The notes below the pieces were generated by a model. It had not been told where the DNA came from. It worked only from the letters and a program-made list of their open reading frames with translations, and searched no databases. This document shows, in pieces, positions 46,548 to 60,830 of a stretch of 64,000 bases of DNA. The stretch comes from Bacteroidota bacterium (GTDB lineage: Bacteria; Bacteroidota; Bacteroidia; Bacteroidales; B39-G9), in NCBI GenBank assembly GCA_015222055.1, contig JADFUR010000065.1, positions 42,176 to 106,175 of the forward strand. Reading direction: 5' to 3'. The first letter of the stretch is position 1; each line of letters opens with the position of its first letter. A program made the translations under genes and the position numbers.

Positions 46548-49547
46548 TTATGGTCTTGCTATTCCGTTTATAAATGTTTCTACAAATCCTAAAATCTTTG
46601 CTGTTACTCTTTCGGCTATTGTTTTTCTTTCTTTCAAACTTGGTCTTTTGTTTAGCATTCCAATAATTTCATCTCTTAAGGGTTTCTTTTCGGTGAACAG
46701 GTAGTTCCCAATTACTTCCTGTAATTTTTCAGAATCCAAATTTTCTTCTTTACTAAGTTTCGCTATTGCCAAAAGTCTTTCTTGATTCCAATAGTTTTCA
46801 AATTCTTCCGGAATATTATCGGAATCATCAATTTCAGGTAAATTTTCTTGTATAAACCTTTCAATTAGCTCTCGTTTGCTACGCATGCGTGCATCACCAG
46901 CCATTAATTCAATAATTGCTTTTTTCTGATTCTCATGTTCTTCTTCGCTTGCATCTTTCAGTTTAGCAAGTAGTTTCAATATGTATGCAACATTTATTTC
47001 GTCTCTATGAATTAATTCTAATTCAAAATCAATATCCTGTAAAATTGAAACTTTCTCTTTTTGATGTGCCGATTTTGCTTTGTCGTAAAGGTCAAGATAT
47101 TTACTTTTATAATCTTCAAAATTTTGCTCTTCCATTGACAAATCAGCAAAATCAAACTCAGTGAAAGTTGCCAATACGTTTTTCAAACGCATTAATTCTC
47201 TGAATGCTTTTATAAATTCGAGTTCTTTTTCTTCATCTTGTAAATCGTTTACACTGCCCACCGTTGGTGTAATTTGCAATAATTCATTAAATGCCTGATT
47301 AAATTTAACAACATACTCTTCATAAGGCTGAATTATTATTTCATCTTTAGCATTTTTGTTCGAGAAAAGTGAAATTGCTTCGTCAGTAGCTGCTTTTAAA
47401 TTTCGGAAACAGACAATATTACCCTGCGATTTTAATTCGTTTAAAATTCTGTTTGTTCTTGAATATGTCTGTATTAAACCGTGATATTTCAAATTCTTAT
47501 CAACATAAAGAGTGTTTAATGTTTTACAGTCGAAACCCGTTAAAAACATATTAACTACCAACAAAATATCAATTTGTTTTTGCTTTACTCGCTTTGCAAC
47601 ATCATTGTAATAGTTGTAGAAACTCTTACTATCTTTTGTAGTGAAGTTTGTGCTATATTGCTTATTGTAATGCCCAATAAATTCTTCGAGATAATCTCTA
47701 CTTAATTGTGAATTATAAGTTGTGAATTGTGAATTGTTTTGGGATTGATATTCAGCTTGTGGTTCAGCTGCAATTTTAGATGATGTTTCCTGAGCGGAGT
47801 CGGATGTTTCCTGAGCGAAGTCGAAGGAAACCTCATCATCAATAAAAGCACTTCCTATAGCGTCTTTATCATCTTCGTTTGCCTGATAAGAAAAAATAGT
47901 AGCCACTCGCAAATTATGTTCACCATTTTCTTTTTTCTGACGAAACAGTTTATAATACTCAATTAAAATATCGATGCTGGAAACAGCAAAAATGCTTGTA
48001 AACTCTCTGTTGTGGGTTTTACGATTATGATTTGTTATAATGTAATCGGTAATATTATTTAAACGCTCCGGGGCATTCATCACCTCTGCTTCGTCAATGC
48101 CTTCGACAAGCTCAGCAGAACTGCCTTCGACAAGCTCAGGAGAACTGCCTTCTACATTAATATCTAAAATATTGTCTTTCTTTTTAAAAGTGCTTATATA
48201 TTCAATAGATAGCTTCAATACATTTTCATCACGAATTGCATCAGTAATTACATATTGATGAAGCTTTTTATCAAACAACATTTTGGTTGTTCGTTTTCCA
48301 AATTCGTTTTTACCTGCATTCTTTTCAAATATTGGTGTGCCTGTAAAACCAAACATCTGACTAGCTGTAAAAAAAGTTTTAATATCTTTATGGGTTTTCC
48401 CAAATTGCGAACGGTGGCACTCATCAAAAATGAAAACAATGTGTTTATCTTTGAGAGTTTCCATTCTGTTTAAATACCTGTTTTTGCAGATGGCGGAATC
48501 TAATTTTTGAATAGTAGTAACAATAATTCTGCTATCACCAATCATCTGTTTAACCAATGTATTGGTATTGTTTGTGCCGTCGATACTTCCTTTGCTAAAT
48601 GCGTTAAATTCTTTGGTTGTTTGATAATCTAAATCTCTACGGTCAACTACAAAAACAACTTTATACACTTTTGGAAAATTGGTGAGAATTTGAGCTGTTT
48701 TAAACGAAGTTAAAGTTTTGCCCGAACCTGTTGTATGCCAAATGTAACCGAACTTATTTGTGGTTTGAACTCTTTCAATAATGGCTTCTACTGCATAAAA
48801 TTGATATGGACGAAGCACCATCAGAATTTTATCAGATTCGTGAATTACAATGTATTTGCATATCATTTTAGAGATATGACAAGGCTCTAAAAAAATATCG
48901 GTAAAATCGGAAAGTTGAGTAATAAGATTATTATCTACATCGCTCCAATAAAAAGTTTGTTTAAACGAGCGTGCTTTTATAGGGTTGTTGGCATAGTATT
49001 TTGTATTTACGCCATTGCTGATTACAAATATTTGGATAAACTGGAATAAGCCGTAACCAGCCCAATACGAATGTCTTTCGTAACGATTGGTTTGATTAAA
49101 AGCCTCTTTTAATTCTAATCCACGGCGTTTTAGCTCTATTTGAACCAATGGCAAACCGTTTATCAAAATAGTAACATCGTAGCGGTTTTTATAAGAACCT
49201 TCCATTGTTACTTGTTGAGTAACCTGAAACTGATTTTTACACCATTGTATTTGATTTATTAATTCAATGGTTTTGTGTTCGCCTTTATCATTGGTAAAAG
49301 GAACACGGTCACGCAATATTTTGGCACGTTCAAAAATATTGCCTTTGTTGATATAGTTTAATATTTGTTTAAAATCATTATCGGATAGGACACATGGCCG
49401 TGTGCTTGTACTGTTGTGAATTTCCAATTGTGATTTTAGATTAGCCAACAAATCGTTTTCATCTTTTATGACCACATATTTGTAAGCCAAATTTTGTAAT
49501 TGAGCAACAAGATTATTTTCTAATATTTGTTCGGCTTGGGTTTTCAT
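46548..49547 (-). CDS. hsdR: Type I restriction enzyme R subunit
   Basis: N-terminal PD-(D/E)xK region (YDVTILINGLPLVQIELKR) and SF2 motor motifs (TTGSGKTLT, FDECHRSQFG, GFTGTP, TGFDCKTLNTLYVDK). Start placed at the Met whose ATG overlaps the upstream TGA (ATGA at 49547-49544). An alternative ATG is at 49568. Confidence 0.93.
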   Translation of the reverse strand: MKTQAEQILENNLVAQLQNLAYKYVVIKDENDLLANLKSQLEIHNSTSTRPCVLSDNDFKQILNYINKGNIFERAKILRDRVPFTNDKGEHKTIELINQIQWCKNQFQVTQQVTMEGSYKNRYDVTILINGLPLVQIELKRRGLELKEAFNQTNRYERHSYWAGYGLFQFIQIFVISNGVNTKYYANNPIKARSFKQTFYWSDVDNNLITQLSDFTDIFLEPCHISKMICKYIVIHESDKILMVLRPYQFYAVEAIIERVQTTNKFGYIWHTTGSGKTLTSFKTAQILTNFPKVYKVVFVVDRRDLDYQTTKEFNAFSKGSIDGTNNTNTLVKQMIGDSRIIVTTIQKLDSAICKNRYLNRMETLKDKHIVFIFDECHRSQFGKTHKDIKTFFTASQMFGFTGTPIFEKNAGKNEFGKRTTKMLFDKKLHQYVITDAIRDENVLKLSIEYISTFKKKDNILDINVEGSSPELVEGSSAELVEGIDEAEVMNAPERLNNITDYIITNHNRKTHNREFTSIFAVSSIDILIEYYKLFRQKKENGEHNLRVATIFSYQANEDDKDAIGSAFIDDEVSFDFAQETSDSAQETSSKIAAEPQAEYQSQNNSQFTTYNSQLSRDYLEEFIGHYNKQYSTNFTTKDSKSFYNYYNDVAKRVKQKQIDILLVVNMFLTGFDCKTLNTLYVDKNLKYHGLIQTYSRTNRILNELKSQGNIVCFRNLKAATDEAISLFSNKNAKDEIIIQPYEEYVVKFNQAFNELLQITPTVGSVNDLQDEEKELEFIKAFRELMRLKNVLATFTEFDFADLSMEEQNFEDYKSKYLDLYDKAKSAHQKEKVSILQDIDFELELIHRDEINVAYILKLLAKLKDASEEEHENQKKAIIELMAGDARMRSKRELIERFIQENLPEIDDSDNIPEEFENYWNQERLLAIAKLSKEENLDSEKLQEVIGNYLFTEKKPLRDEIIGMLNKRPSLKERKTIAERVTAKILGFVETFINGIARP
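47701..47832. repeat. In-frame repeat insertion inside hsdR (aattgtgaatt-type repeats plus 2 x 21-bp gatgtttcctgagcg[g/a]agtcg)
   Basis: Tandem 21-mers at 47782-47802 and 47803-47823, closing hairpin gtttcc...ggaaac. Translated as FAQETSDSAQETS...QSQNNSQFTTYNSQLS. Locally much more GC-rich than the gene. Confidence 0.8.
48099..48152. repeat. In-frame 24-bp tandem repeat inside hsdR (gccttcgacaagctcag[c/g]agaact x2.25)
   Basis: Read directly from the sequence; translated as EGSSPELVEGSSAELVEG between conserved HsdR blocks. Confidence 0.85.
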
Positions 49548-50188
49548 ATTACTTTTTTGATTTGCCACAATAATCGTTCACGGTCGTATTTAGTTTGCCT
49601 ACCATATGACATAATTCCATTGAGATAAAAATAAGTTTTGGTTTTATCTACATACAAACCAGTTTTGTCCTCAAATTGTAATTGTAAATATCCTTTTAAA
49701 ATATCAGCTGTAATAACATTATTGGTAATAACTAGCTTTGGAGAAATGAATTTTAAAATTTCAGAAAAAACAGATAGGTGTTTATTGTGTAAAGGTTTAA
49801 GTAAACCATTGTCACCTATTAACTCTTTAACAATAATTTTGGCAGTTTTGTAACTCATTTGGAACAAATCACAATGTTCAAACTCTACACCTAAATCATC
49901 AGCGATACTCGAAATGGGTTTGTAGTAACGTTTGTATTGACCATTTCTATCAGGCACCCCATCGCCAAAAATTGCCTGGAATTCTTGTTTAATTTTATGT
50001 TGGATTTCGACTTCGCTAAAACTCGTAATAGCAGGCTTTGGTGTTATGTCGCCCGATGGATTTAGTCCAACGAACAGTATTTTGGCATTGGTATTTAATG
50101 GATGTATAAATGTTGGCATATTTCCCCGAAGATTGTCGGGTAATTGATGCCACCATTCTAATATCTCCTTATTTAAAATCTCTTCCAT
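49544..50188 (-). CDS. Hypothetical 214-aa protein embedded in the type I R-M operon (possible uracil-DNA-glycosylase-superfamily fold)
   Basis: Its start abuts the hsdS stop (TAAATG) and its stop overlaps the hsdR start (ATGA). KILFVGLNPSG resembles UDG/MUG motif A (G-[IL]-NP-[GS]), but this is a weak, memory-based call. Confidence 0.35.
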   Translation of the reverse strand: MEEILNKEILEWWHQLPDNLRGNMPTFIHPLNTNAKILFVGLNPSGDITPKPAITSFSEVEIQHKIKQEFQAIFGDGVPDRNGQYKRYYKPISSIADDLGVEFEHCDLFQMSYKTAKIIVKELIGDNGLLKPLHNKHLSVFSEILKFISPKLVITNNVITADILKGYLQLQFEDKTGLYVDKTKTYFYLNGIMSYGRQTKYDRERLLWQIKKVI

Positions 50189-51925
50189 TTAAACAAACAT
50201 TTTTTGTAATAAACCCTTTTTAAATAATTGTGAATTATCAATTGTTGATTGTAAATTATTTATGCTTTTATCTATTGATGAAAGGAAATTGGCTATTTTT
50301 TGTTGTTCTTCAAATGATGGTATTTTAACATTAATTTTTGAAAAATTACCAACTGATATCGTGAACCTTGTGCTTCCTGTAGAATAACTTGATAGTTGTT
50401 TCAAAACAGATGGAATATTGCAAAAATAATGTGAATACAGTAAGTCAAGTTTTATTTTTGGTCTAAACCTCATTAAATGATAACTAAATAAAGTATCTTC
50501 CAAATCCTCAAAAATTACAACAGAATGACCTATATCAGTGGGCGTTTCAGATGATGGTGTAAACAAAATATCACCTTTTCTTAAATTCGTAGATTTAATT
50601 TGATTTTCTTTTGCGGTAACAATTTGTAAGTTTTCACGAGTAGTGTTGTTAATGTTTTCGTGTCGATAAACATTCATATAATTAACAAGATATATTTGCT
50701 TTTCATTTTCTTTTGAAAGTTTATCTACGCTACTTGTTTGAAATGCACCAATCTCCCCCAACCTCTTCACTTCCCAATCAGGTGGTTCGACAAGCTCACC
50801 AGCCTTATTTTTGATTTTAAACCGTAACTCTTGCGAAAATAATTTTTGCATTACCCCTTTTTTGTATTGCTCTAATTCTGTTTTCTTTTCTTGCAAAAGG
50901 TTTATGCGTTTGTCAACTGCGGTGAGGAAAGTGGCTATGCGGGTTTGTTCTTCCAGAATAGGGACATTTATATCAAGTGTTTTTAATTGACTTGCATACA
51001 AATGAACTACGGAAATACCTTGCGACAATCTTGCGATATTAGTTTTTTGAGCATTATTCAAGTAGTATGATAAAAAAATACCGTCCATCTCAGATTTAAT
51101 AATATTTAAATCTCCACCTAATGCCACACCCGATTTTTCAACGCAAGAAGCAGTTGCAATATCAATTTGAGTTTCCCCAGATGCAGGAATGATAACATCA
51201 TTAGCTTCACTTAATAAAAGTTCTGCTTCATCAATATTTGTTTTTGAAACAATTTCAGTGATTACTTCTGAATATTCCGTATATAATTCTCCGTATCGAA
51301 TACATTCGGTTGCTCCGTCTTCTGAAATATCTGCTTTTGAGATTCCTTTCCCTTTACTAAAAGTAGCAATTGCACCAAGTTTATCAGGATTCCATTCCCC
51401 CTCAAACTCAGGAAACCGTAATTGTGGCACATTGTGGCTGAGCGGAGTCGGGTGGCTGAGCGTAGTTGGGTGGCTGAGCGAAATAGGGTGGCTGAGCGTA
51501 GTCGAAGCCACGTTCTCTTTCGTTTCGGCTCCGCTCAACGACCGTTCACTCCCCGACGACCGTTCACTCCCCGACGACCGTTCTTCCCCCGCTGCCTGAG
51601 CGGAGCCGAAGGCAGCCGATTTAAAAGCTTTATGTGATGTTTCATTCAAACACATGGATAATTCGTGCAATTTTTCCGGCATATTGTTAATCAAAGCTTC
51701 TTTCTTTTTTCTGCTCCATCCTTGCACTTGTTTTTCTCTGTAAAAAGCATTGTCTATTCTGTCGAATTCTTCAAAATAAACTAACTCTACAGGTAAATGT
51801 TTTTTAGTATGATTTGCTCCTTCACCATTTTGGTGTTGATGTAATCTTAGTTCCAGATATTTTGTGCTTCCTGTATAATAACTGTCATCTGAGCACTTTA
51901 AAATATACATATATCCTCTTGTCAT
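50189..51925 (-). CDS. hsdS: GIY-YIG nuclease domain joined in frame to type I specificity subunit HsdS
   Basis: aa 1-~95: GIY-YIG (GYMYILKCSDDSYYTGSTKYLELRLHQH...YREKQVQGWSRKKKEALI). aa ~100-165: repeat-encoded linker. aa 166-578: two-TRD HsdS beginning VPQLRFPEFEGEW. No stop codon between the parts. An in-frame GTG at 51430 could start a conventional HsdS. Confidence 0.85.
   Translation of the reverse strand: MTRGYMYILKCSDDSYYTGSTKYLELRLHQHQNGEGANHTKKHLPVELVYFEEFDRIDNAFYREKQVQGWSRKKKEALINNMPEKLHELSMCLNETSHKAFKSAAFGSAQAAGEERSSGSERSSGSERSLSGAETKENVASTTLSHPISLSHPTTLSHPTPLSHNVPQLRFPEFEGEWNPDKLGAIATFSKGKGISKADISEDGATECIRYGELYTEYSEVITEIVSKTNIDEAELLLSEANDVIIPASGETQIDIATASCVEKSGVALGGDLNIIKSEMDGIFLSYYLNNAQKTNIARLSQGISVVHLYASQLKTLDINVPILEEQTRIATFLTAVDKRINLLQEKKTELEQYKKGVMQKLFSQELRFKIKNKAGELVEPPDWEVKRLGEIGAFQTSSVDKLSKENEKQIYLVNYMNVYRHENINNTTRENLQIVTAKENQIKSTNLRKGDILFTPSSETPTDIGHSVVIFEDLEDTLFSYHLMRFRPKIKLDLLYSHYFCNIPSVLKQLSSYSTGSTRFTISVGNFSKINVKIPSFEEQQKIANFLSSIDKSINNLQSTIDNSQLFKKGLLQKMFV
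51434..51616. repeat. GC-rich tandem and hairpin repeats forming the GIY-YIG/HsdS linker
   Basis: 4 x 18 bp gtggctgagcg-nnnnn-gg (51434-51511, LSHP(T/I)x repeats). About 2.5 x 18 bp cgacgaccgttcactccc (SERSSG repeats). Hairpin gctgcc-tgagcggagccgaa-ggcagc (51591-51616). Confidence 0.85.
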
Positions 51926-51936
51926 ATCAATATATT

Positions 51937-53508
51937 TTAAAATGGTGTTTCAATATTTAATTCCTCACAAAAACCGGCAATCTCTTTGTTTACCTCTTCT
52001 AAATCATTATTAATAGTTTTCAGATTATCAGAAACCTCTTTTAAATCAACAGGCTCTTCCTCTTCAAAAGTATCAACATATCTTGGAATATTCAGGTTGT
52101 AGTCGTTTTCGGCAATCTCTGCCAAACTTGCTACATAAGAATATTTATCTTTGGTTTGTCTAGAGCGGTAAGTATCAATAATTTCATTTACATCCTCATC
52201 ACGCAATTGGTTTTGGTTACCGTTTTTTACGAAATGCTCATGTCCGCTTGCATCAATAAAAACTACATTTTCATCAGCTTCACGGCATTTTTTAAACACC
52301 AAAATACAAGTAGGAATACTTGTGCCGTAAAAAATATTGGCAGGCAAACCAATAACGGCATCTAAATAATTAAGTTCTTTAATTAAATATTTACGGATAA
52401 CTCCTTCGGCTGCACCTCTAAACAAAACACCATGTGGTGCTACGGTTGCCATTGTTCCGTTGTCTGCCAGTTGGTAAATCATGTGGGTTACAAATGCGTA
52501 ATCGGCTTTCGTCTTGGGTGCTAATCGTCCATATTGACTAAATCTTTCGTCAGTACTGTTTAATGGATTTGTATCACTTTTCCAATGAGCCGAAAATGGC
52601 GGATTGGCAACAACGGCTTCAAATCGTTTATCGAGATGTTGCGGATTTTCCAAAGTGTCTTCTTGCCGTATATCAAACTTACGGTAATGAACATCGTGCA
52701 AAATCATATTCATACGAGCAAGGTTGTAGGTGGTACGGTTTAGTTCTTGTCCGTAAAATTCGCTTACATCACTTACTTCTCTTGCCACACGCAAAAGCAA
52801 AGAACCCGAACCGCAGGTTGGGTCATAAACCGATTTTAATTTTGTTTTTCCTGTAGTAACAATTTTTGCCAGTATTTTAGAAACCTGTTGTGGTGTATAA
52901 AATTCTCCTGCCGATTTTCCTGCACCTGCTGCAAACTTTGCAATCAAATATTCGTAAGCATCTCCCAAAACATCGGCTTCTACATCGTCAAGTTTGAAAT
53001 CTATTTTGTCGAGATGGTTTAATATTTTTACAATTACTTCGTTTCTGGCTCCAACCGTTCTACCGATTTTAGTAGAAGTTAAATCCATATCCTCAAACAA
53101 AGCGTTAAAATCATCTTCCGATTCTGTTCCCATTGTGCTTTGCTCAATTTGGTTCATCACGGCTTGTAAATCTTCAATTATGTAGTTGCTTTCACTTTCG
53201 GTGTCGGCATTTCCTTTTTTTGCAAGTTCAGAAAATAGTTCACTAGGTTTTAAAAAGTAACCCAATTTCATTAAAGATTCTTCTTTTAGGGCATCCAGAG
53301 TTTCTGTGTTGGTTACTTTTTTATAGTCTGTTACTTTCTCTCCTTCAAGTAGCCCATTGGCATATAAATATTGTTTTTCGCTCAGGTATTTATAAAAGAT
53401 AAAACCGAGAATGTAGTCTCGGTAATCGTCTGCACTTATTTTTCCTCTCAGTAGGTTTGCAATTCCCCAAAGTTGAGCTTCCAATATTTTTTTTTGGTCT
53501 TCTGACAT
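51937..53508 (-). CDS. hsdM: Type I restriction-modification N6-adenine DNA methyltransferase subunit
   Basis: HsdM N-terminal domain (LWGIANLLRG), motif I DPTCGSGSLLL, motif IV VANPPFS; 523 aa. Confidence 0.95.
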   Translation of the reverse strand: MSEDQKKILEAQLWGIANLLRGKISADDYRDYILGFIFYKYLSEKQYLYANGLLEGEKVTDYKKVTNTETLDALKEESLMKLGYFLKPSELFSELAKKGNADTESESNYIIEDLQAVMNQIEQSTMGTESEDDFNALFEDMDLTSTKIGRTVGARNEVIVKILNHLDKIDFKLDDVEADVLGDAYEYLIAKFAAGAGKSAGEFYTPQQVSKILAKIVTTGKTKLKSVYDPTCGSGSLLLRVAREVSDVSEFYGQELNRTTYNLARMNMILHDVHYRKFDIRQEDTLENPQHLDKRFEAVVANPPFSAHWKSDTNPLNSTDERFSQYGRLAPKTKADYAFVTHMIYQLADNGTMATVAPHGVLFRGAAEGVIRKYLIKELNYLDAVIGLPANIFYGTSIPTCILVFKKCREADENVVFIDASGHEHFVKNGNQNQLRDEDVNEIIDTYRSRQTKDKYSYVASLAEIAENDYNLNIPRYVDTFEEEEPVDLKEVSDNLKTINNDLEEVNKEIAGFCEELNIETPF

Positions 53509-53935: not shown

Positions 53936-56062
53936 TTATTTAAACATTCCTTTATCTCTTTTTTTTACACCTTTCGATTTTCCAAGTTTGTCTAACTCTA
54001 ATTCTTCTTTCAGAAAATCTTTTATATAAGACTCTATATTTGAAACATTATACTTGATGTTTAATTTTTCTTTTACAAATGGAATAATATCTGATAACTT
54101 CGAATGTCCATTAATATTAATAAATTCTATTATAACAGTAGATAAATCTTTCTTAGTCTCTTTATTAACAGGAATATCTTTTAATTGTAGAGTGCCATCA
54201 CAACTTGTTTTTTTATCCCAACCATATTTTGAACAACCATAAAAAGGTTTATTATCCTTTTTTCTATACCTAAGTATCATTTCACTTCCACATTTCGGGC
54301 ATTTTGGATTATCATTTGTTTGCTGAGAACTGACAGGTTTCTGCTCAATAACAGAACTCCTTTTTTCTTTGTTAGGTTGAACTTGCTTTACTGATTGTGT
54401 CTTTATTCGTTTTGTTGGTGTTTCTTCATCCTTAATTTTTACAGGTCGTTTTACCAAACTTTCAATATTAAATGAAACTTCTAAATGAGAATTATGTAAT
54501 TTATCTTGTACGTCTTGATATAATCTACGAGTACTTTCAATATTCTCTTTTTCAAATAATAAATTTGTTATTGTTTTAGGCAAAGCAGAAAATCCGAAAA
54601 TACTACCCCAAAGACCAAGTGCAATCCTATAATCTGAAAGTTGATTCTTTCTTAAACTATCAATTAATTTCTCTGCTTCTTCTCCTTTTTGAATGAATAA
54701 AGCGATAGATTGCAAAAGTATGCTTGAATGACTTTTTAAGTCAAATGGTTGATAATTTTCAATATTATCCATTAAACTATTAAAGTAATCTCTCTCCTTG
54801 CTATTTTCCCAGTTTGGAATATATTCTTTCAGAATAGCACCAACTTTAAATGCTAAATTTATTTTTTCTTCTTTAAAAGTCTGAATGTTATTTATTGGGT
54901 AGTCAAAAATATCGTTAATAATATTTCTGTATAAATCTGCTTTGCCTTTTTCAAAAAAATTATCTTCCAATTGTGTTATTTTAAATCCATTAAAATTGAG
55001 ATTTTCAATTAGAGATAATGGATCTGTTTTTTTTCTTTCTTCTTTCTTTAACTCAGAAACATATCTCGTTATTCTACTTGTCTTTACTGATAGTATCTGT
55101 TTTGAATATGGATTGGTTAAGTATTCTTTAAGGTCATCAATTAGAAATAAAATATCATTTTCACTGTCTTTAATTTTATTTTCTAATTGCTGATAAACAG
55201 ATTCTTTTTCTAACTTTAACCCTTTTAAGAAATTAACAAGTTTTGACTGCTCGTTAATATTTGAATCGTCTATATATTTGGCTTTTACTAATTCTTCTTT
55301 TAATACTTTTTTATTTCCAATTGCATTATCAATACTTACTTTAAAGCTCTCTAATTTATCAATTATATTTTGAGAGGAACTCGTTTGCTTTCCTTTTTGA
55401 TTAAAGAACTCTAAAATTAATTGTGAGATTAAAATAAATTCTTCTTTTAATGTTTTTTCTTTTATCGAAGATGAAAGTATTATACCTAGAAAGTATGAAT
55501 AATAAAACCCTTTCAGTTTATTTGTTTTAGAATCTATATCTATTTGTTTAGAAACTTCATTGTTAGGCAAATCTGATAATTTTGAGATAAATGATTTATC
55601 CCAATCAAACGAAGCATTATTATTACTTATTAAAGAAATAGCTTTTTTATAAACAGGCAATAATTTTGTTCCAATACTTGGCTCTACTTTAATCAAAGTT
55701 GTATTTAATTCTTTTTCCTTAAAAAACAAAAATCTAACCTTACTTGGATGAAAATATATAGTTTTATTAAGTTGAAAAATTTTTATTCCATTATTTTCAG
55801 AACTATTAGTAATGCTATCTATTATTAATTCTTTTGAAATTTCAATAATTAGTGGATATTCGTCAAAATCAGTTTCGCCAATTTTAAATAAAGGGATTTT
55901 ATCGTAAGCAAGAATTGAATTTATAAAAGGATTAGGTTCAACTTTTGTAAAACGCTTATATCCGAATTTTCTATTTGTATAGAAAGCTTCTGGCGATATT
56001 GATTCAGTCGTCAATATATTATTAAAATTCAATGTGTTTGTTGCAATATATAGTTTTTCCAT
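53936..56062 (-). CDS. 708-aa protein of unknown function with C-terminal topoisomerase-type C4 zinc finger (gene 4 of candidate system)
   Basis: CPKCGSEMILRYRKKDNKPFYGCSKYGWDKKTSCDGT (nt 54191-54301) matches the Topo C4 zinc-finger pattern. I recognise nothing in the first ~580 aa. Its start is 2 nt after the helicase stop. Confidence 0.8.
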   Translation of the reverse strand: MEKLYIATNTLNFNNILTTESISPEAFYTNRKFGYKRFTKVEPNPFINSILAYDKIPLFKIGETDFDEYPLIIEISKELIIDSITNSSENNGIKIFQLNKTIYFHPSKVRFLFFKEKELNTTLIKVEPSIGTKLLPVYKKAISLISNNNASFDWDKSFISKLSDLPNNEVSKQIDIDSKTNKLKGFYYSYFLGIILSSSIKEKTLKEEFILISQLILEFFNQKGKQTSSSQNIIDKLESFKVSIDNAIGNKKVLKEELVKAKYIDDSNINEQSKLVNFLKGLKLEKESVYQQLENKIKDSENDILFLIDDLKEYLTNPYSKQILSVKTSRITRYVSELKKEERKKTDPLSLIENLNFNGFKITQLEDNFFEKGKADLYRNIINDIFDYPINNIQTFKEEKINLAFKVGAILKEYIPNWENSKERDYFNSLMDNIENYQPFDLKSHSSILLQSIALFIQKGEEAEKLIDSLRKNQLSDYRIALGLWGSIFGFSALPKTITNLLFEKENIESTRRLYQDVQDKLHNSHLEVSFNIESLVKRPVKIKDEETPTKRIKTQSVKQVQPNKEKRSSVIEQKPVSSQQTNDNPKCPKCGSEMILRYRKKDNKPFYGCSKYGWDKKTSCDGTLQLKDIPVNKETKKDLSTVIIEFININGHSKLSDIIPFVKEKLNIKYNVSNIESYIKDFLKEELELDKLGKSKGVKKRDKGMFK

Positions 56063-56064
56063 AA

Positions 56065-57138
56065 TTATAATCTTCTGCTTGATTTACTTATTAATGAAGT
56101 TTCATATAAGTTATCTGATACGTCATTAAAAAATGGTGACAAATCTCCTGAATGCATTATAAACAATGATTGATAAGAACGTGTTATCGCAACATATAAT
56201 GGGCTTCTATAATCTTCGTCAGAAACAGTACAATTTGGAATAAAAACTGCTTCAAATTGTAAACCTTTACTACTATGATATGTTGTCAATTTAGGTTTGT
56301 CTGTACTAAAATTTAAAGTCATCTTACTTGCTCCTCCTTTTATGTCATATTTAGCTTCAACATCAATTCCTTTTTGAGCAATGTACTCTTCTGCATATTT
56401 TACGTCTGTATTATTTCTGAAAAATATCCCTACATCTTCAAATTGTCGATTTTTAATTATTTCAATAATCGCATCTAGCTGTAAAATAAGATTATTATAA
56501 AGCAAGACTTTTGGCAATTCTGTTCCTTCATTACGGCATCTCAATTCTAATTCATCATCAGAATTTGTAATTTGTTCAGCTAATCTTGCAATCTTTTTTG
56601 GCAACCTATGATTGAATACTAATTGCTCACTTGGAAAACTAGTTTGAGCAGCTATCTGCTCCATTGATATTGGTTCTGGCGTTCTAAACTTATAAATTTG
56701 TTGAGCACTATCACCGTACATTATTAGAGCTTTATTAGCCTTTGATTTAAATATGTCAATATCTTCAGCTGCAAAATCTTGCGCCTCATCAACTATTATG
56801 TAATCTGCTGAAGGTGCATTTTCGTGTTTTATCCAAGTTCCATTCTCCATTGTCCAACGCCAACGCCACTTATCATAATGAAGAACTCTATCACTTCTCA
56901 ATCCAATGTCGGTGATTCCATCTTTCATATATTGTTTAAGTGTCTTTGTAAATAGGATAAAATAAAAACTACCCATGTTTTCTTCTTGGATTTGTTTTAC
57001 TTTCCACAAAGCTAAAATTGACTTGCCGCTTCCTGCACAGCCTTTTACTAAAAATGATTTGTCAGTCCTTCTTCGAATCACTTGTTCTTGATACCCATCA
57101 AGCTCAGATTCATTGATGTAAAATGATTTTTTTGGCAT
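56065..57138 (-). CDS. Compact UvrD-like SF1 helicase/ATPase (gene 3 of candidate system)
   Basis: Walker A GCAGSGKS, Walker B IIVDEAQDF, motif III YGDSAQQIY, YHSSKGLQFEAVFI, motif VI YVAITRS; only 357 aa. Confidence 0.85.
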   Translation of the reverse strand: MPKKSFYINESELDGYQEQVIRRRTDKSFLVKGCAGSGKSILALWKVKQIQEENMGSFYFILFTKTLKQYMKDGITDIGLRSDRVLHYDKWRWRWTMENGTWIKHENAPSADYIIVDEAQDFAAEDIDIFKSKANKALIMYGDSAQQIYKFRTPEPISMEQIAAQTSFPSEQLVFNHRLPKKIARLAEQITNSDDELELRCRNEGTELPKVLLYNNLILQLDAIIEIIKNRQFEDVGIFFRNNTDVKYAEEYIAQKGIDVEAKYDIKGGASKMTLNFSTDKPKLTTYHSSKGLQFEAVFIPNCTVSDEDYRSPLYVAITRSYQSLFIMHSGDLSPFFNDVSDNLYETSLISKSSRRL

Positions 57139-57150
57139 TTCTATTTTATA

Positions 57151-58155
57151 TTAAATAATACTCTGTTTATTAACATCGTGTTTCTTCAAATTCTGTTTTA
57201 CTATATTCTCCGAATAATTTGCATAACAATAAGTACAAAGATGATTGCAAGTGTTATACATTCCAATATCTTTACTTACGATACAACCACAAGCCTTTCT
57301 TTGCCCCTTGTCTTTTAATTTTATGTTACTAGAATAATCATTATCAAACAATGATAGCATTGGATTACTTAAACCTAACCAATCAAGAATTTTAGGGTCA
57401 TCTTTTCCTATTTTATATATTAATTCATCATCAATACATCTGTTATGCTTAATGCTGAATTTTTCTAAATCAACTTTTTCGGCACAAGTCGAAAGTGATA
57501 ATTTCCAAGATTTATTTAAATACACAATTTTTTCAGAAAATTCATCAATTTCAGATTGTGTAAACTCTCTGTATGATTCATTTGTTTTTGATAAGTTAGA
57601 TTTAACTTTTTTATATAATTCAATATCTGCAAAACTGAATACTAACTTTTCTGTATGTTGATATATTTGATTTCCAATATTTTTAATTTTTGAAATTAAA
57701 TTGTCAATTGTTATTGAAGAACTTAGAATTAACGGGTCAAAACGCCAAATAACTTTTTCTTTTCCAATCTGATTTGATAAATTAATAAACGTTTCTATTC
57801 TTGTATCAAGTTTTGGTACATTTGGCTCTAAGTTTTCTTTTACGTAATCGTTTAGAGTATATTGAAAATAAAATTTAATTCCCCTTTTATCAAGTTCTTT
57901 CAAATGTGGAATTATTGGTTTTGGGTTTTTTGTCCAAAAAACAATGATTTTAGTTTCTTCAAAAGACACATACTGTTCTTTTCTATTAAATGGGTTTATC
58001 CAAGTGATATAACCTTTTTCAAGTCGATTCATAAACCAACGTGAATAAAAAGCTGGAATATCAGTTGAACGACTTGCTGAAATTACAAAAGGAAGAATTG
58101 CTTCAACCGTTTCGCCTTTATCATTGATTATATTTTTTTTATCCCAAACTTTCAT
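57151..58155 (-). CDS. DUF1848 family protein with C-terminal radical-SAM-like CX3CX2C cluster (gene 2 of candidate system)
   Basis: ISASRSTDIPAFYSRWFMNRLEKGY...IVFWTKNP...FYFQYTLNDY...VIWRFDPLI...QRKACGC...CNHLCTYCYAN matches my recollection of DUF1848 end to end. The Cys triad is at nt 57226-57249. Confidence 0.75.
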   Translation of the reverse strand: MKVWDKKNIINDKGETVEAILPFVISASRSTDIPAFYSRWFMNRLEKGYITWINPFNRKEQYVSFEETKIIVFWTKNPKPIIPHLKELDKRGIKFYFQYTLNDYVKENLEPNVPKLDTRIETFINLSNQIGKEKVIWRFDPLILSSSITIDNLISKIKNIGNQIYQHTEKLVFSFADIELYKKVKSNLSKTNESYREFTQSEIDEFSEKIVYLNKSWKLSLSTCAEKVDLEKFSIKHNRCIDDELIYKIGKDDPKILDWLGLSNPMLSLFDNDYSSNIKLKDKGQRKACGCIVSKDIGMYNTCNHLCTYCYANYSENIVKQNLKKHDVNKQSII

Positions 58156-58158
58156 AAT

Positions 58159-59439
58159 TTATATTTTATATGCTGATTGTGTATTTGAAGTAGAAGAAAT
58201 AAAGTAACAATATTTTTGATTTCCGATATTATCCCAACCAATTACATTTCCTATATTATCTATTTTTGATAATATCAAATTAACAAATTTACTTTTTCCT
58301 ATTATTCTATAAGTAACTTTTGTTCTGTCATTTTTCTTTTTACTATGAGTAACTACAAAATGATTATTACTAAAACAATCTTGTTTGCAAATACTATCAA
58401 ATTTGGCACAACTTGTTGGAATAAGAGTTTTGTATGTACCTTTATTTTCTTGAATAAACCTATTTGTCTGTTTATTTAGAAGTATTGGCATATAATCAAC
58501 TTCTATTTTCTTTGTTACGTCAAGCATTAATAAAAGCCCTTCATTATTCAGATATTTTGCAAAATGGTTATAGAAATTGAAATATGAATCTCTGTCTTTT
58601 GTAATTATTTCATTTATCATCTTTGATGAAATAATGAAATCAAAATTTGGTTCAAAAAATTGCTTTGAGTTCTCATATAAATCTGTTATCGTTTCAAAAG
58701 CAACATAATGACAATTAAGACTTATGTTTAAATTATATTTTAATTGAATATGAAATACTATCTTTTCAAGGAATTTTAACGCTTCTTTGTTTCCATCAAC
58801 TGCAACAATATTGAAGTTAGCTTTTTTTGAAATATTTTCAATCAGGCTTAGTAGTAGTCCTGATAAATTTCCGCCAGTACCTGAACCAATATCAAGTATG
58901 TTAATTTCTTCTTGTTCTTGATATGATTTTTCAATTATTTCATTTTGTATAATATTATTGAATATGGAATACGTTTCAGCAAAACTTCTTGGGAAATATG
59001 TACCTATATAAATTAGAACATCCCCTTTTTTATGGTTTAAGTTTTTGTTGAATTTTTTAAAATTGGGTGCGAAGCTTGCATTTAATTTATTAAAAATATA
59101 ATCATCTATGAATTTAGGTAACGTAATATCCTTTTGTAATTCTTTTGACTTAAGCTTTTTTATAGATTTAATGGTTCTTCCATTTGCTCCAACAAACCAA
59201 AATATTTTTCGTGAAGTTTGTTGTACTTCCTTGTTTAAGAATTTTGATAATTTTCCAATTTGTTCTTGCTCAATTTTCTTTTCAAGTAATTCAATCTCAC
59301 ATAAAAAATCAAATTGGCTTTCAGAATATTCAATTGATTCTTCTTTTGAAAAAACAGATATATGTAATTCAGAATCCCCAAAAATTATTTTGGAAATTTC
59401 TTTTACATTGTTTTCTAATATCTGCTTTTCGTTTCTCAT
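58159..59439 (-). CDS. Class I SAM-dependent methyltransferase-like protein with ~180-aa unknown N-terminal region (gene 1 of candidate system)
   Basis: Motif I INILDIGSGTGGN, acidic beta-2 end VAVDGN, FDFIISS, LLLMLDV. No NPPY/DPPY/SPPY or PC-type DNA-methyltransferase catalytic motif. Confidence 0.7.
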   Translation of the reverse strand: MRNEKQILENNVKEISKIIFGDSELHISVFSKEESIEYSESQFDFLCEIELLEKKIEQEQIGKLSKFLNKEVQQTSRKIFWFVGANGRTIKSIKKLKSKELQKDITLPKFIDDYIFNKLNASFAPNFKKFNKNLNHKKGDVLIYIGTYFPRSFAETYSIFNNIIQNEIIEKSYQEQEEINILDIGSGTGGNLSGLLLSLIENISKKANFNIVAVDGNKEALKFLEKIVFHIQLKYNLNISLNCHYVAFETITDLYENSKQFFEPNFDFIISSKMINEIITKDRDSYFNFYNHFAKYLNNEGLLLMLDVTKKIEVDYMPILLNKQTNRFIQENKGTYKTLIPTSCAKFDSICKQDCFSNNHFVVTHSKKKNDRTKVTYRIIGKSKFVNLILSKIDNIGNVIGWDNIGNQKYCYFISSTSNTQSAYKI

Positions 59440-60186: not shown

Positions 60187-60447
60187 TTAATCTGTTAGTT
60201 TCAATTTAACAAGTTGAGCAGTAACACCTTTCACTAAATTTAACTTTCTTTCAATTTCAACATGTTTGTCATTTTCGCCAGCTAATTCGATAAAAACCAG
60301 ACCAGTATTGGAACACTTATCAAGTATACCGTCATGAATACCCAAACGAATTTTTATATAACAGCCCCAACCGGTTAAAATTTTTTGTACTTTTTCGGCA
60401 GCTTCTCTACGTGTACTCATGTAAATTAATAAAATATTTTTTTCCAT
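60187..60447 (-). CDS. Small ACT/NikR-C-like protein (resembles TM1266-type 'iron-only hydrogenase system regulator' family)
   Basis: 86 aa. ILLIYMSTRREAAEKVQKILTGWGCYIKIRLGI...GLVFIELAG...LNLVKGVTAQLVKL fits a beta-alpha-beta-beta-alpha-beta small regulator. Family assignment is from memory only. Confidence 0.4.
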   Translation of the reverse strand: MEKNILLIYMSTRREAAEKVQKILTGWGCYIKIRLGIHDGILDKCSNTGLVFIELAGENDKHVEIERKLNLVKGVTAQLVKLKLTD

Positions 60448-60772: not shown

Positions 60773-60808
60773 AAAAAAAAATGGTGCAAGCGAAAACGCT
60801 TGCACCAT
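60773..60808 (-). terminator. Rho-independent terminator of the UvrD/PcrA gene
   Basis: Minus strand: atggtgcaagcg-tttt-cgcttgcaccat followed by T8, 23 nt past the stop. Confidence 0.8.
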
Positions 60809-60830
60809 TTTAAATTTTACTTTAAAAAAA

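Follow-up and report, generated by a model that had tools for sequence, protein, structure and literature searches.

We propose, with moderate confidence, that a DUF1848 protein encoded in a 64,000-nt stretch of a Bacteroidota metagenome-assembled genome (contig JADFUR010000065.1, positions 42,176 to 106,175, hereafter the window) is an iron-sulfur (Fe-S) enzyme of the radical S-adenosylmethionine (SAM) type that acts on DNA within a helicase-based conflict cassette. Taking into account that the two pieces of the protein matching a canonical SplB-like radical SAM family lie in swapped order, DUF1848 would most simply be a circularly permuted enzyme of the SplB/spore photoproduct lyase (SPL) clade. 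That its substrate is DNA is a well supported prediction. DUF1848 is a catalogued but uncharacterised family, and the four-gene cassette of the window is not previously described. The original prediction, made from this stretch alone, had assigned the protein to DUF1848 and had pointed to its Cys motif, a defence-like context and a possible likeness to SPL; the circular permutation, the invariance of four other Cys residues and a fourth cassette gene with a DarT-like fold go beyond it.

The C-terminal Cys motif and the predicted barrel of DUF1848

The gene and the elements of its product are as follows.

57151..58155, minus strand: DUF1848 protein of 334 residues, predicted TIM-barrel-like enzyme with an Fe-S motif at the C-terminus (open reading frame (ORF), Pfam, PADLOC, AlphaFold2 (AF2) model)
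57226..57249, minus strand: CX3CX2C motif CNHLCTYC, residues 303-310 (C303, C307, C310, with Y309 before the third Cys), predicted [4Fe-4S]/SAM site (sequence and conservation)
57283..57291, minus strand: CGC, that is C289 and C291, two of the four further invariant Cys residues (alignment A1 and 105 representatives)
57436..57486, minus strand: C224 (in TCAE, at the end of a predicted strand) and C240 (in NRCIDD), the remaining two invariant Cys residues (alignments and AF2 model)
57721..57960, minus strand: barrel segment, residues 66-145 (VFWTKNP, FYFQYTLND, EPNVPx4R, RFDPL), aligning with strands 3-5 of canonical SplB-like radical SAM proteins (hhalign)

The family assignment was confirmed with Pfam, in which residues 24-312 correspond to positions 1-262 of the DUF1848 model (PF08902) with 325.9 bits against a gathering cut-off of 30.5 (E 3.1e-97). 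The protein, named 'DUF1848 domain-containing protein' at NCBI, also matches the PADLOC model RTasDUF1848 (E 3.3e-41). In a search of 1.84 billion representatives, 4918 members (clusters at 50% identity) were found at E<=1e-3.

The C-terminal part of the ORF product reads QRKACGCIVSKDIGMYNTCNHLCTYCYANYSENIV. The original prediction placed CNHLCTYC near the C-terminus with CX3CX2C spacing and a CGC 14 residues upstream of it. Counted on the sequence, both statements were exact, C289 lying 14 residues before C303, and the motif stands 24 residues from the C-terminus. We then used 80 loci carrying the closest DUF1848 relatives (49-62% identity), in which the neighbouring ORFs were clustered; many of these loci are incomplete. 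They come from Bacteroidota, Lentisphaerota, Kiritimatiellia, Campylobacterota, Bacillota and one Methanosarcinales archaeon. The CX3CX2C string was present in all 79 of the 79 DUF1848 homologues of these loci, with a median distance to the C-terminus of 27 residues, and in just 9 of 864 other ORF products of the same loci. Among 105 full-length representatives of the family (clustering at 50% identity), C224, C240, C289, C291, C303, C307 and C310 as well as Y309 were 100% conserved. Judged from these alignments, the motif is conserved and not a product of chance. An aromatic residue ahead of the third Cys is a usual signature of radical SAM enzymes, and C303, C307, C310 and Y309 display both this residue and the spacing. 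On the other hand, a radical SAM enzyme carries its motif in the loop behind strand 1, N-terminally in the barrel, a position that the motif does not occupy in the DUF1848 protein.

A link to canonical enzymes was provided by fusions. A canonical Pfam Radical_SAM domain is fused to DUF1848 in the representatives P0240, P0243, P0244 and P0324, and fusions of DUF1848 with the canonical SplB-like domain occur in both orders. This Radical_SAM domain shows a weak similarity to the families PA0069 and Rv2578c and belongs to a stand-alone family of 260-300 residues with the JGI name 'DNA repair photolyase', a label that many DUF1848 proteins also carry. When the profile of the stand-alone family was compared with the PDB, only the SPL entries 4fhc-4fhg were matched (E about 0.09), in two collinear pieces, TGCMGHCHYCYLQ (Cys motif CMGHCHYCY) and FRFSIN...FEPGTSSFDGR...VVAPIY.

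Profile alignment with hhalign matched two parts of DUF1848 to this canonical family. One comprises the Cys motif, with residues 293-318 of DUF1848 corresponding to canonical positions 12-37 (E 3.6e-6 to 1e-4, probability up to 89%); the best alignment had an E of 3.6e-6 and a probability of 87%. The motif reads CNHLCTYCYA in DUF1848, GCSxxCxYCYA in the canonical family and CMGHCHYCYL in SPL, so that all three have the form C-x3-C-x-Y-C-Y(A/L). The other match is in the barrel, where residues 66-145 correspond to canonical positions 94-175 (E 1.3e-3 to 7e-3 in five alignment pairs). Four pairs of motifs face each other here, given as DUF1848 and then canonical family.

VFWTKNP and VVSKPRP
FYFQYTLND and IMFRFTIGA
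EPNVPx4R and EPNAPx4R
RFDPL and SMEPM

The spacing of these barrel motifs (TK-P, F-F-T, EPNxPx4R and (D/E)P(L/M)) agrees between DUF1848 and the canonical family. With the Cys motif left out, the barrel score was 31.3, compared to a mean of 16.1 (sd 3.4, maximum 30.0) for column shuffles, none of which (0/150) reached it. The motif and barrel matches stand in opposite order in the two families, and when the last 54 residues of the DUF1848 alignment were moved to the front, both merged into one collinear alignment of 220 columns. The Viterbi score did not rise with this step and only the extended alignment turned collinear; the permutation by itself therefore adds no statistical weight. Taken together, sequence comparison gives solid homology between DUF1848 and the canonical SplB-like family at the level of the motif, and homology that is suggestive at the level of the barrel.

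The AF2 model of DUF1848 (pLDDT 90, pTM 0.90) consists of seven strand-helix units, the last of which is formed by strand 295-297, the Cys loop and helix 316-325. Invariant residues of alignment A1 come after each predicted strand. In a Foldseek search of the PDB, the highest homology probabilities were obtained with the radical SAM proteins Mmp10 (0.96-0.97) and Elp3 (0.98), at E 6e-3 to 9e-3 and a TM of 0.35; the remaining matches were ordinary TIM barrels, among them the Fe-S protein IspG. The structural comparison that had been suggested for this protein thus led to radical SAM enzymes as top-probability matches, but below the significance of Foldseek. In the PDB and BFVD together, only a Pithovirus fragment and one unnamed viral protein were found at E<1e-3. 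Foldseek is a sequential aligner and is poorly suited to a permuted fold.

Several results weigh against assigning DUF1848 to the radical SAM enzymes. Pfam Radical_SAM (PF04055) covers only residues 299-318 with 15.3 bits, below the cut-off of 29.5, and a DUF1848 sequence permuted by hand, with the C-terminal segment moved to the front, did not extend the match. Searches of PDB chains with the single sequence and with the family profile gave nothing significant and did not reach SPL directly; the best phmmer match placed residues 281-316 on the cluster loop of MiaB with an E of 1.7. Foldseek found nothing in the PDB at E<1e-3, with a TM of just 0.35 for the matches named above. The seven invariant Cys residues exceed what one radical SAM cluster needs, leaving four in excess. 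When motif-less alignments were compared (A5 against A4), hhalign chose another strand-helix register (E 0.12), and we call the barrel homology marginal because of this. Moreover, the domain order is permuted with respect to that of the SplB/SPL clade. As both the position of the motif and the Pfam cut-off speak against membership, we term DUF1848 a permuted relative rather than a radical SAM member. The description 'spore-photoproduct-lyase-like' is reasonable for its ancestry because, of the canonical proteins, radical SAM enzymes of the SplB/SPL kind stand closest to it, but the sequence match on which it rests is marginal in the barrel. No canonical SplB-like gene adjoins DUF1848 in the 80 close loci.

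A conserved four-gene cassette

In the window, the DUF1848 gene is the second of four genes in the order MT426, DUF1848, Hel357 and P708, all on the minus strand and separated by gaps of 3, 12 and 2 nt. The three partners and the parts of P708 are listed here.

58159..59439, minus strand: MT426, 426 residues, first cassette gene, class I SAM-methyltransferase-like domain at about residues 151-315 (sub-threshold Pfam matches)
56065..57138, minus strand: Hel357, short superfamily 1 (SF1) UvrD-like helicase with Walker A GSGKS and DEAQD (Pfam UvrD/Viral_helicase1/AAA_19; PADLOC)
53936..56062, minus strand: P708, orphan 708-residue protein, fourth cassette gene (Pfam Zn_ribbon_Top1; AF2; Foldseek)
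55463-56062, minus strand: N-terminal DarT-like fold of P708, about residues 1-200 (Foldseek on AF2 model)
54224-54304, minus strand: topoisomerase-I-type zinc ribbon of P708, of the single-stranded DNA (ssDNA) type, residues 587-613 (Zn_ribbon_Top1, its sole Pfam domain)

MT426 displays an LDIGSGTGG motif and matches the class I models CheR and Methyltransf_23/31/32/12 below threshold (E 3e-4 to 7e-3, about 20 bits); nothing above threshold was obtained in PADLOC, NCBIfam or the PDB. Hel357 is closest to GajB (3e-22) and to the reverse transcriptase (RT)-associated helicases (RTasHel, 1e-17) in PADLOC. MT426 and P708 had no match in PADLOC 2.0, and a scan for sigma-70 promoters was uninformative in this AT-rich Bacteroidota DNA. 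The view that DUF1848 is operonic with a SAM-binding protein and a helicase thus holds in its tight spacing and conserved synteny, but SAM binding by the neighbour is indicated by sub-threshold matches only.

P708 represents an orphan family of about 100 clusters. Its AF2 model (pLDDT 82) comprises a DarT-like N-terminus, a helical middle part, the zinc ribbon and a C-terminal winged helix, for which Foldseek matches winged-helix proteins. The top Foldseek matches were DarT structures 7omx and 7omv (probability 1.0 and 0.99, TMt 0.45 and 0.42, E 0.036-0.09) over about 210 N-terminal residues. The likeness to an ADP-ribosyltransferase (ART) is one of fold only. The usual catalytic His is not evident, none of 31 members gave a Pfam DarT/ART match, sequence searches of the PDB did not give a DarT match, and hhalign between P708 and the ART-bearing c6 proteins described below was unconvincing (E 0.062 over residues 1-121).

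We examined how far the cassette is conserved. Clusters of Hel357-type helicases were present in 50 of the 80 loci, and those of MT426 and P708 homologues in 23 each; all four genes recur jointly in about 25 of the 80. The commonest order is MT-HEL-P708-DUF1848, and the window and a Sulfurimonas genome have MT-DUF1848-HEL-P708. Chance adjacency was rejected, and the cassette regarded as a functional unit, because the gene content is kept while the order varies. P708 homologues sit in the same cassette wherever there is enough flanking DNA, both in the 80 loci and in three direct look-ups of distant homologues (27-51% identity), all of which (3/3) lie within the four-gene cassette. One of these cassettes is located directly after rpoBC, another in an element that also encodes a Mob_Pre relaxase and a Toprim primase, and the third next to a transposase, a PIN-domain gene and small genes of the DUF4160/DUF2442 type. 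The four-gene cassette is therefore conserved and sometimes found on mobile DNA. We found no literature on it.

Three variants were observed.

MT-HEL-c18-DUF1848: c18 has the N-terminal sequence pattern of P708
DUF1848-HEL-c6-MTase-like: c6 has the Pfam ART domain 2CompART (E 1.2e-20)
DUF1848, a giant protein and a small third gene: the third encodes either a membrane protein with a coiled coil or one of the DUF2971/PDC-S31 type

The giant partners have 1047-1746 residues and an N-terminal methyltransferase-like domain with the motif 'DWGCGQG' (L025:6391-11400, L056:9038-14278, L046:9070-12213). In the giant protein of L025 this domain is joined to a Vsr/DUF559-type endonuclease and a DpdF-like/RecQ-type helicase, in that of L046 to a NERD-UvrD helicase, and it is also present in a partner protein of 514 residues. 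A hidden Markov model of the MT426 family does not reach the 'DWGCGQG' domains, and two different methyltransferase-like families therefore accompany DUF1848. A further DUF1848 protein is that of the UG25 RT systems (class 1 UG/Abi), in which it is paired with a methylase-RT fusion (PMC9226505). From the variant cassettes and UG25 it follows that the constant companions of DUF1848 are a SAM-methyltransferase-like domain and a nucleic-acid motor.

At two loci of the first variant (L052 and L058; e.g. L058:1092-4091), a 999-residue protein with DUF7830, a DUF6035/CoiA-like nuclease and WG repeats is encoded directly upstream of MT-HEL-c18-DUF1848, and this protein may be a fifth component.

Genes flanking DUF1848 recurrently include those of the defence-island type, such as HsdR, Schlafen/AlbA_2, AAA_14-DUF4143, WYL and RhuM. 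The defence-like context proposed originally was borne out by the type I restriction-modification (R-M) system in the window and, at other loci, by GajB-, DpdF- and NERD-UvrD-type helicases, PDC-S31, HsdR and WYL. As for the gene context itself, SF1 helicase synteny was seen in 50 of the 80 loci; in 26 of the 76 loci scored, no helicase, methyltransferase-like or P708-like gene was present within five genes of DUF1848.

Other contexts, adjoining genes and known systems

DUF1848 was also found in settings that bear on its substrate. An AlkB-like 2-oxoglutarate-Fe(II) oxygenase gene (PF13532, E 1.3e-32) is located directly upstream of DUF1848 in L018, L053 and L055 (e.g. L055:7363-7998), and another stands two genes away on a Planktothrix plasmid (L081:8861-9544); these neighbours hint at alkyl-type lesions of DNA or RNA in such systems. 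On a Roseburia plasmid (L082:5322-7942), genes for a macrodomain ADP-ribose hydrolase, Sir2 and DUF1848 are consecutive and co-directional, and this locus is a second, independent tie of DUF1848 to ADP-ribosylation. In Parabacteroides, a flavodoxin gene adjoins DUF1848 divergently and a non-specific endonuclease gene follows DUF1848. Single representatives are fused to a DnaX-like clamp-loader AAA+ ATPase, to MgsA_C and to an N6_N4 DNA methylase; the fusion-bearing representatives listed are P0240, P0243, P0244, P0324 and P0248. Fusions to the DNA methylase, to the DnaX/MgsA-like AAA+ proteins and to canonical radical SAM domains point to DNA. We observed in addition that P0240, P0251 and P0268 have a further N-terminal domain in common (APHG...WxHG motif).

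Members of the family were present in eight phage records, including a phage of 735 kb, and on six plasmids. The homologue in the 735-kb uncultured phage genome (LR756501, 319181-319954) has 46% identity, and others occur in human-gut phage contigs. Phages could use DUF1848 in counter-defence or repair.

Adjoining the cassette in the window, 427 nt downstream of it, is the type I R-M system, which is complete.

46548..53508, minus strand: type I R-M system (Pfam and PADLOC)
46548-49568, minus strand: hsdR (Pfam and PADLOC)
49544-50188, minus strand: ORF of 214 residues between hsdR and hsdS, overlapping hsdR by 25 nt
50189-51925, minus strand: hsdS with N-terminal GIY-YIG (Pfam E 4.8e-16)
51937-53508, minus strand: hsdM (Pfam and PADLOC)

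The 214-residue ORF had no Pfam or PADLOC match and no homologue in the 80 loci. In hsdS, a low-complexity linker (SERSSG / LSHPxxLSHP) joins the GIY-YIG and specificity parts, an unusual fusion. A single composite system formed by the cassette and the R-M genes was rejected because the cassette occurs without R-M elsewhere, at the three distant P708 loci. The 13-kb block of cassette and R-M genes is bordered by housekeeping genes, a serine dehydratase gene on one side and pcrA/uvrD on the other. Just after pcrA/uvrD, a perfect hairpin of 15 bp flanked by T-runs (60778-60811), resembling a bidirectional terminator, marks the boundary of the intergenic region on the side of the island; a small ORF of 86 residues (60187-60447) is weakly TM1266-like.

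Among known proteins, SplB/SPL (COG1533) shares with DUF1848 the type of Cys motif (C-x3-C-x-Y-C-Y), the barrel motifs F-x-F-(S/T), EPxxxxxxxR and (D/E/A)P(L/M/I) with matching spacing, and DNA-related contexts. SPL repairs the 5-thyminyl-5,6-dihydrothymine lesion, and SplB-like proteins of non-sporulating bacteria are radical SAM repair enzymes under SOS regulation. Unlike them, DUF1848 has its motif at the C-terminus rather than the N-terminus (a permuted topology), has four extra invariant Cys residues, does not reach the Pfam Radical_SAM cut-off, and occurs in cassettes with helicase, methyltransferase-like and ART-like proteins instead of sporulation or SOS operons. The UG25 systems contain the same DUF1848 family (PADLOC RTasDUF1848), again in company with a methyltransferase-like domain and with a motor or polymerase for nucleic acids. 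However, no neighbour in the window has an RT domain, and DUF1848 is accompanied there by a methyltransferase-like protein encoded separately, by an SF1 helicase and by P708. In the literature, we did not find a demonstrated defence phenotype of UG25.

DarTG resembles the cassette in that DarT is the closest fold to the N-terminal domain of P708 and that sister cassettes hold a Pfam ART protein (2CompART, E 1.2e-20) in the P708 slot. A logic directed at ssDNA would be common to both, in the cassette by way of the zinc ribbon and the helicase. The cassette differs in having four genes instead of two, no macrodomain, no DarT sequence match and no evident catalytic His in P708; as a reversal enzyme, DUF1848 would be of a kind without precedent. 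The helicases found as partners belong to defence-associated types, those of the Gabija (GajB), Dpd (DpdF) and NERD-UvrD modules, but GajA and the Dpd deazaguanine genes are absent and the short helicase of the window does not carry NERD. Compared to prokaryotic viperins, DUF1848 has no Radical_SAM match beyond the motif, and no nucleotide kinase or other genes of nucleotide metabolism are found next to it. Ophion is an unrelated radical SAM system.

The possible reaction of DUF1848

In the mechanism that we consider, the strand and the CX3CX-Tyr-Cys-Tyr loop, which normally open the barrel at the N-terminus, would have been relocated to the C-terminus. C303, C307 and C310 would coordinate a [4Fe-4S] cluster with SAM bound at the fourth iron, and one-electron reduction, for example by a flavodoxin, would yield a 5'-deoxyadenosyl radical. 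In ssDNA exposed by the partner helicase, a nucleotide that is damaged or modified would then lose a hydrogen to this radical. As an eraser, DUF1848 might remove a base adduct put on DNA by the transferase-like proteins of the cassette (ART-like and methyltransferase-like), with the result that host DNA would be spared and invader DNA would remain marked.

Lesion reversal of the SPL kind is the role that we slightly favour over the writing of a mark, as a tentative guess that could well be wrong. It is favoured because SplB-like enzymes are SOS-regulated repair proteins, because the links to AlkB, Sir2/macro and replication ATPases fit repair, because many DUF1848 members stand alone, and because the cassette, for all its transferase-like proteins, contains no enzyme already known for reversal. 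Two considerations weaken it. The giant-helicase cassettes and the UG25 systems have no ART, which counts against DUF1848 as an eraser of ADP-ribose in particular, and the constant methyltransferase-like partner and the fusion to a DNA methylase fit a writer equally well. A writer would install, together with the methyltransferase-like domain, a radical-made mark of self on the DNA base or backbone, and the variable partners (ART-like proteins, restriction endonuclease-helicase fusions, RT) would attack unmarked DNA. The recurrence of a SAM-methyltransferase-like domain as one constant companion, be it MT426, the 'DWGCGQG' domain of the 514-residue and giant proteins or the methylase-RT of UG25, agrees with this reading, as do the single representative fused to an N6_N4 DNA methylase, the resemblance of the variable remainder of the cassettes to exchangeable effectors and motors, and the adjoining type I R-M system. 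We nevertheless regard a writer as rather unlikely, since SPL, the closest characterised relative, repairs and does not modify, since the AlkB, Sir2/macro and replication AAA+ associations fit repair better, and since 26 of the 76 loci scored have no methyltransferase-like or helicase partner near DUF1848. In addition, the methyltransferase-like domains do not have a recognisable motif IV of DNA amino-methyltransferases.

Two other readings, both less likely, concern the chemistry itself. The Cys residues might form an Fe-S or zinc centre, with a structural or redox-sensing function, in a TIM-barrel enzyme that processes DNA as a nuclease, glycosylase or lyase, with no SAM radical involved. 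Fe-S DNA glycosylases and helicases are precedents, and the number of invariant Cys residues, the sub-threshold Pfam Radical_SAM match, the non-radical TIM barrels (including Fe-S-bearing IspG) in the Foldseek list and the at most putative status of SAM-binding barrel motifs (GGE-like, ribose and GXIXGXXE) in DUF1848 are all compatible with such a centre. We consider it quite unlikely, taking into account that the CX3CX2C spacing, the invariant aromatic residue and YCYA are a radical SAM/SplB signature, that hhalign matches the motif to a bona fide Radical_SAM family with an E of 3.6e-6 and that the barrel segment aligns to the same family. Prokaryotic viperins are radical SAM enzymes with small-molecule products in defence. 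With these and OpnA of Ophion as examples, DUF1848 might likewise make a small antiviral molecule or a modified nucleotide instead of acting on DNA polymers, but this is very unlikely. The partners are helicases, ssDNA zinc ribbons, proteins resembling restriction endonucleases, a DNA methylase and replication AAA+ domains, with no nucleotide kinase, phosphoribosyltransferase or transporter among them, and the nearest relatives act on DNA.

Also to be set against a radical SAM enzyme acting on DNA is that we found no functional study of, or experiment on, the DUF1848 (PF08902) family in the literature; neither did we find a description of DUF1848 as a permuted radical SAM protein, a study of SplB in defence or one of 2CompART function. 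The most far-reaching proposal, in which DUF1848 would be a permuted, DNA-acting branch of the radical SAM enzymes and the four genes an undescribed, widespread and mobile anti-phage system that erases or matures a DNA base adduct, is put forward as a doubtful one. If true, it would give immunity its first radical-SAM 'antidote' or 'writer' with DNA as the direct target.

A permuted DNA enzyme of the SPL type would in itself add a second DNA-directed chemistry to a clade in which SPL is the only studied member, and would be a clear case of circular permutation among radical SAM enzymes. The recurring ties to ADP-ribosylation (ART-like proteins, Sir2/macro) and to AlkB suggest that DNA base adducts and radical repair may be linked. 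DUF1848 is a large family, with its 4918 clusters, and yet is entirely uncharacterised. As the four-gene cassette is conserved from Bacteroidota to Campylobacterota and is found on mobile DNA, it can readily be put forward as a candidate new system of defence.

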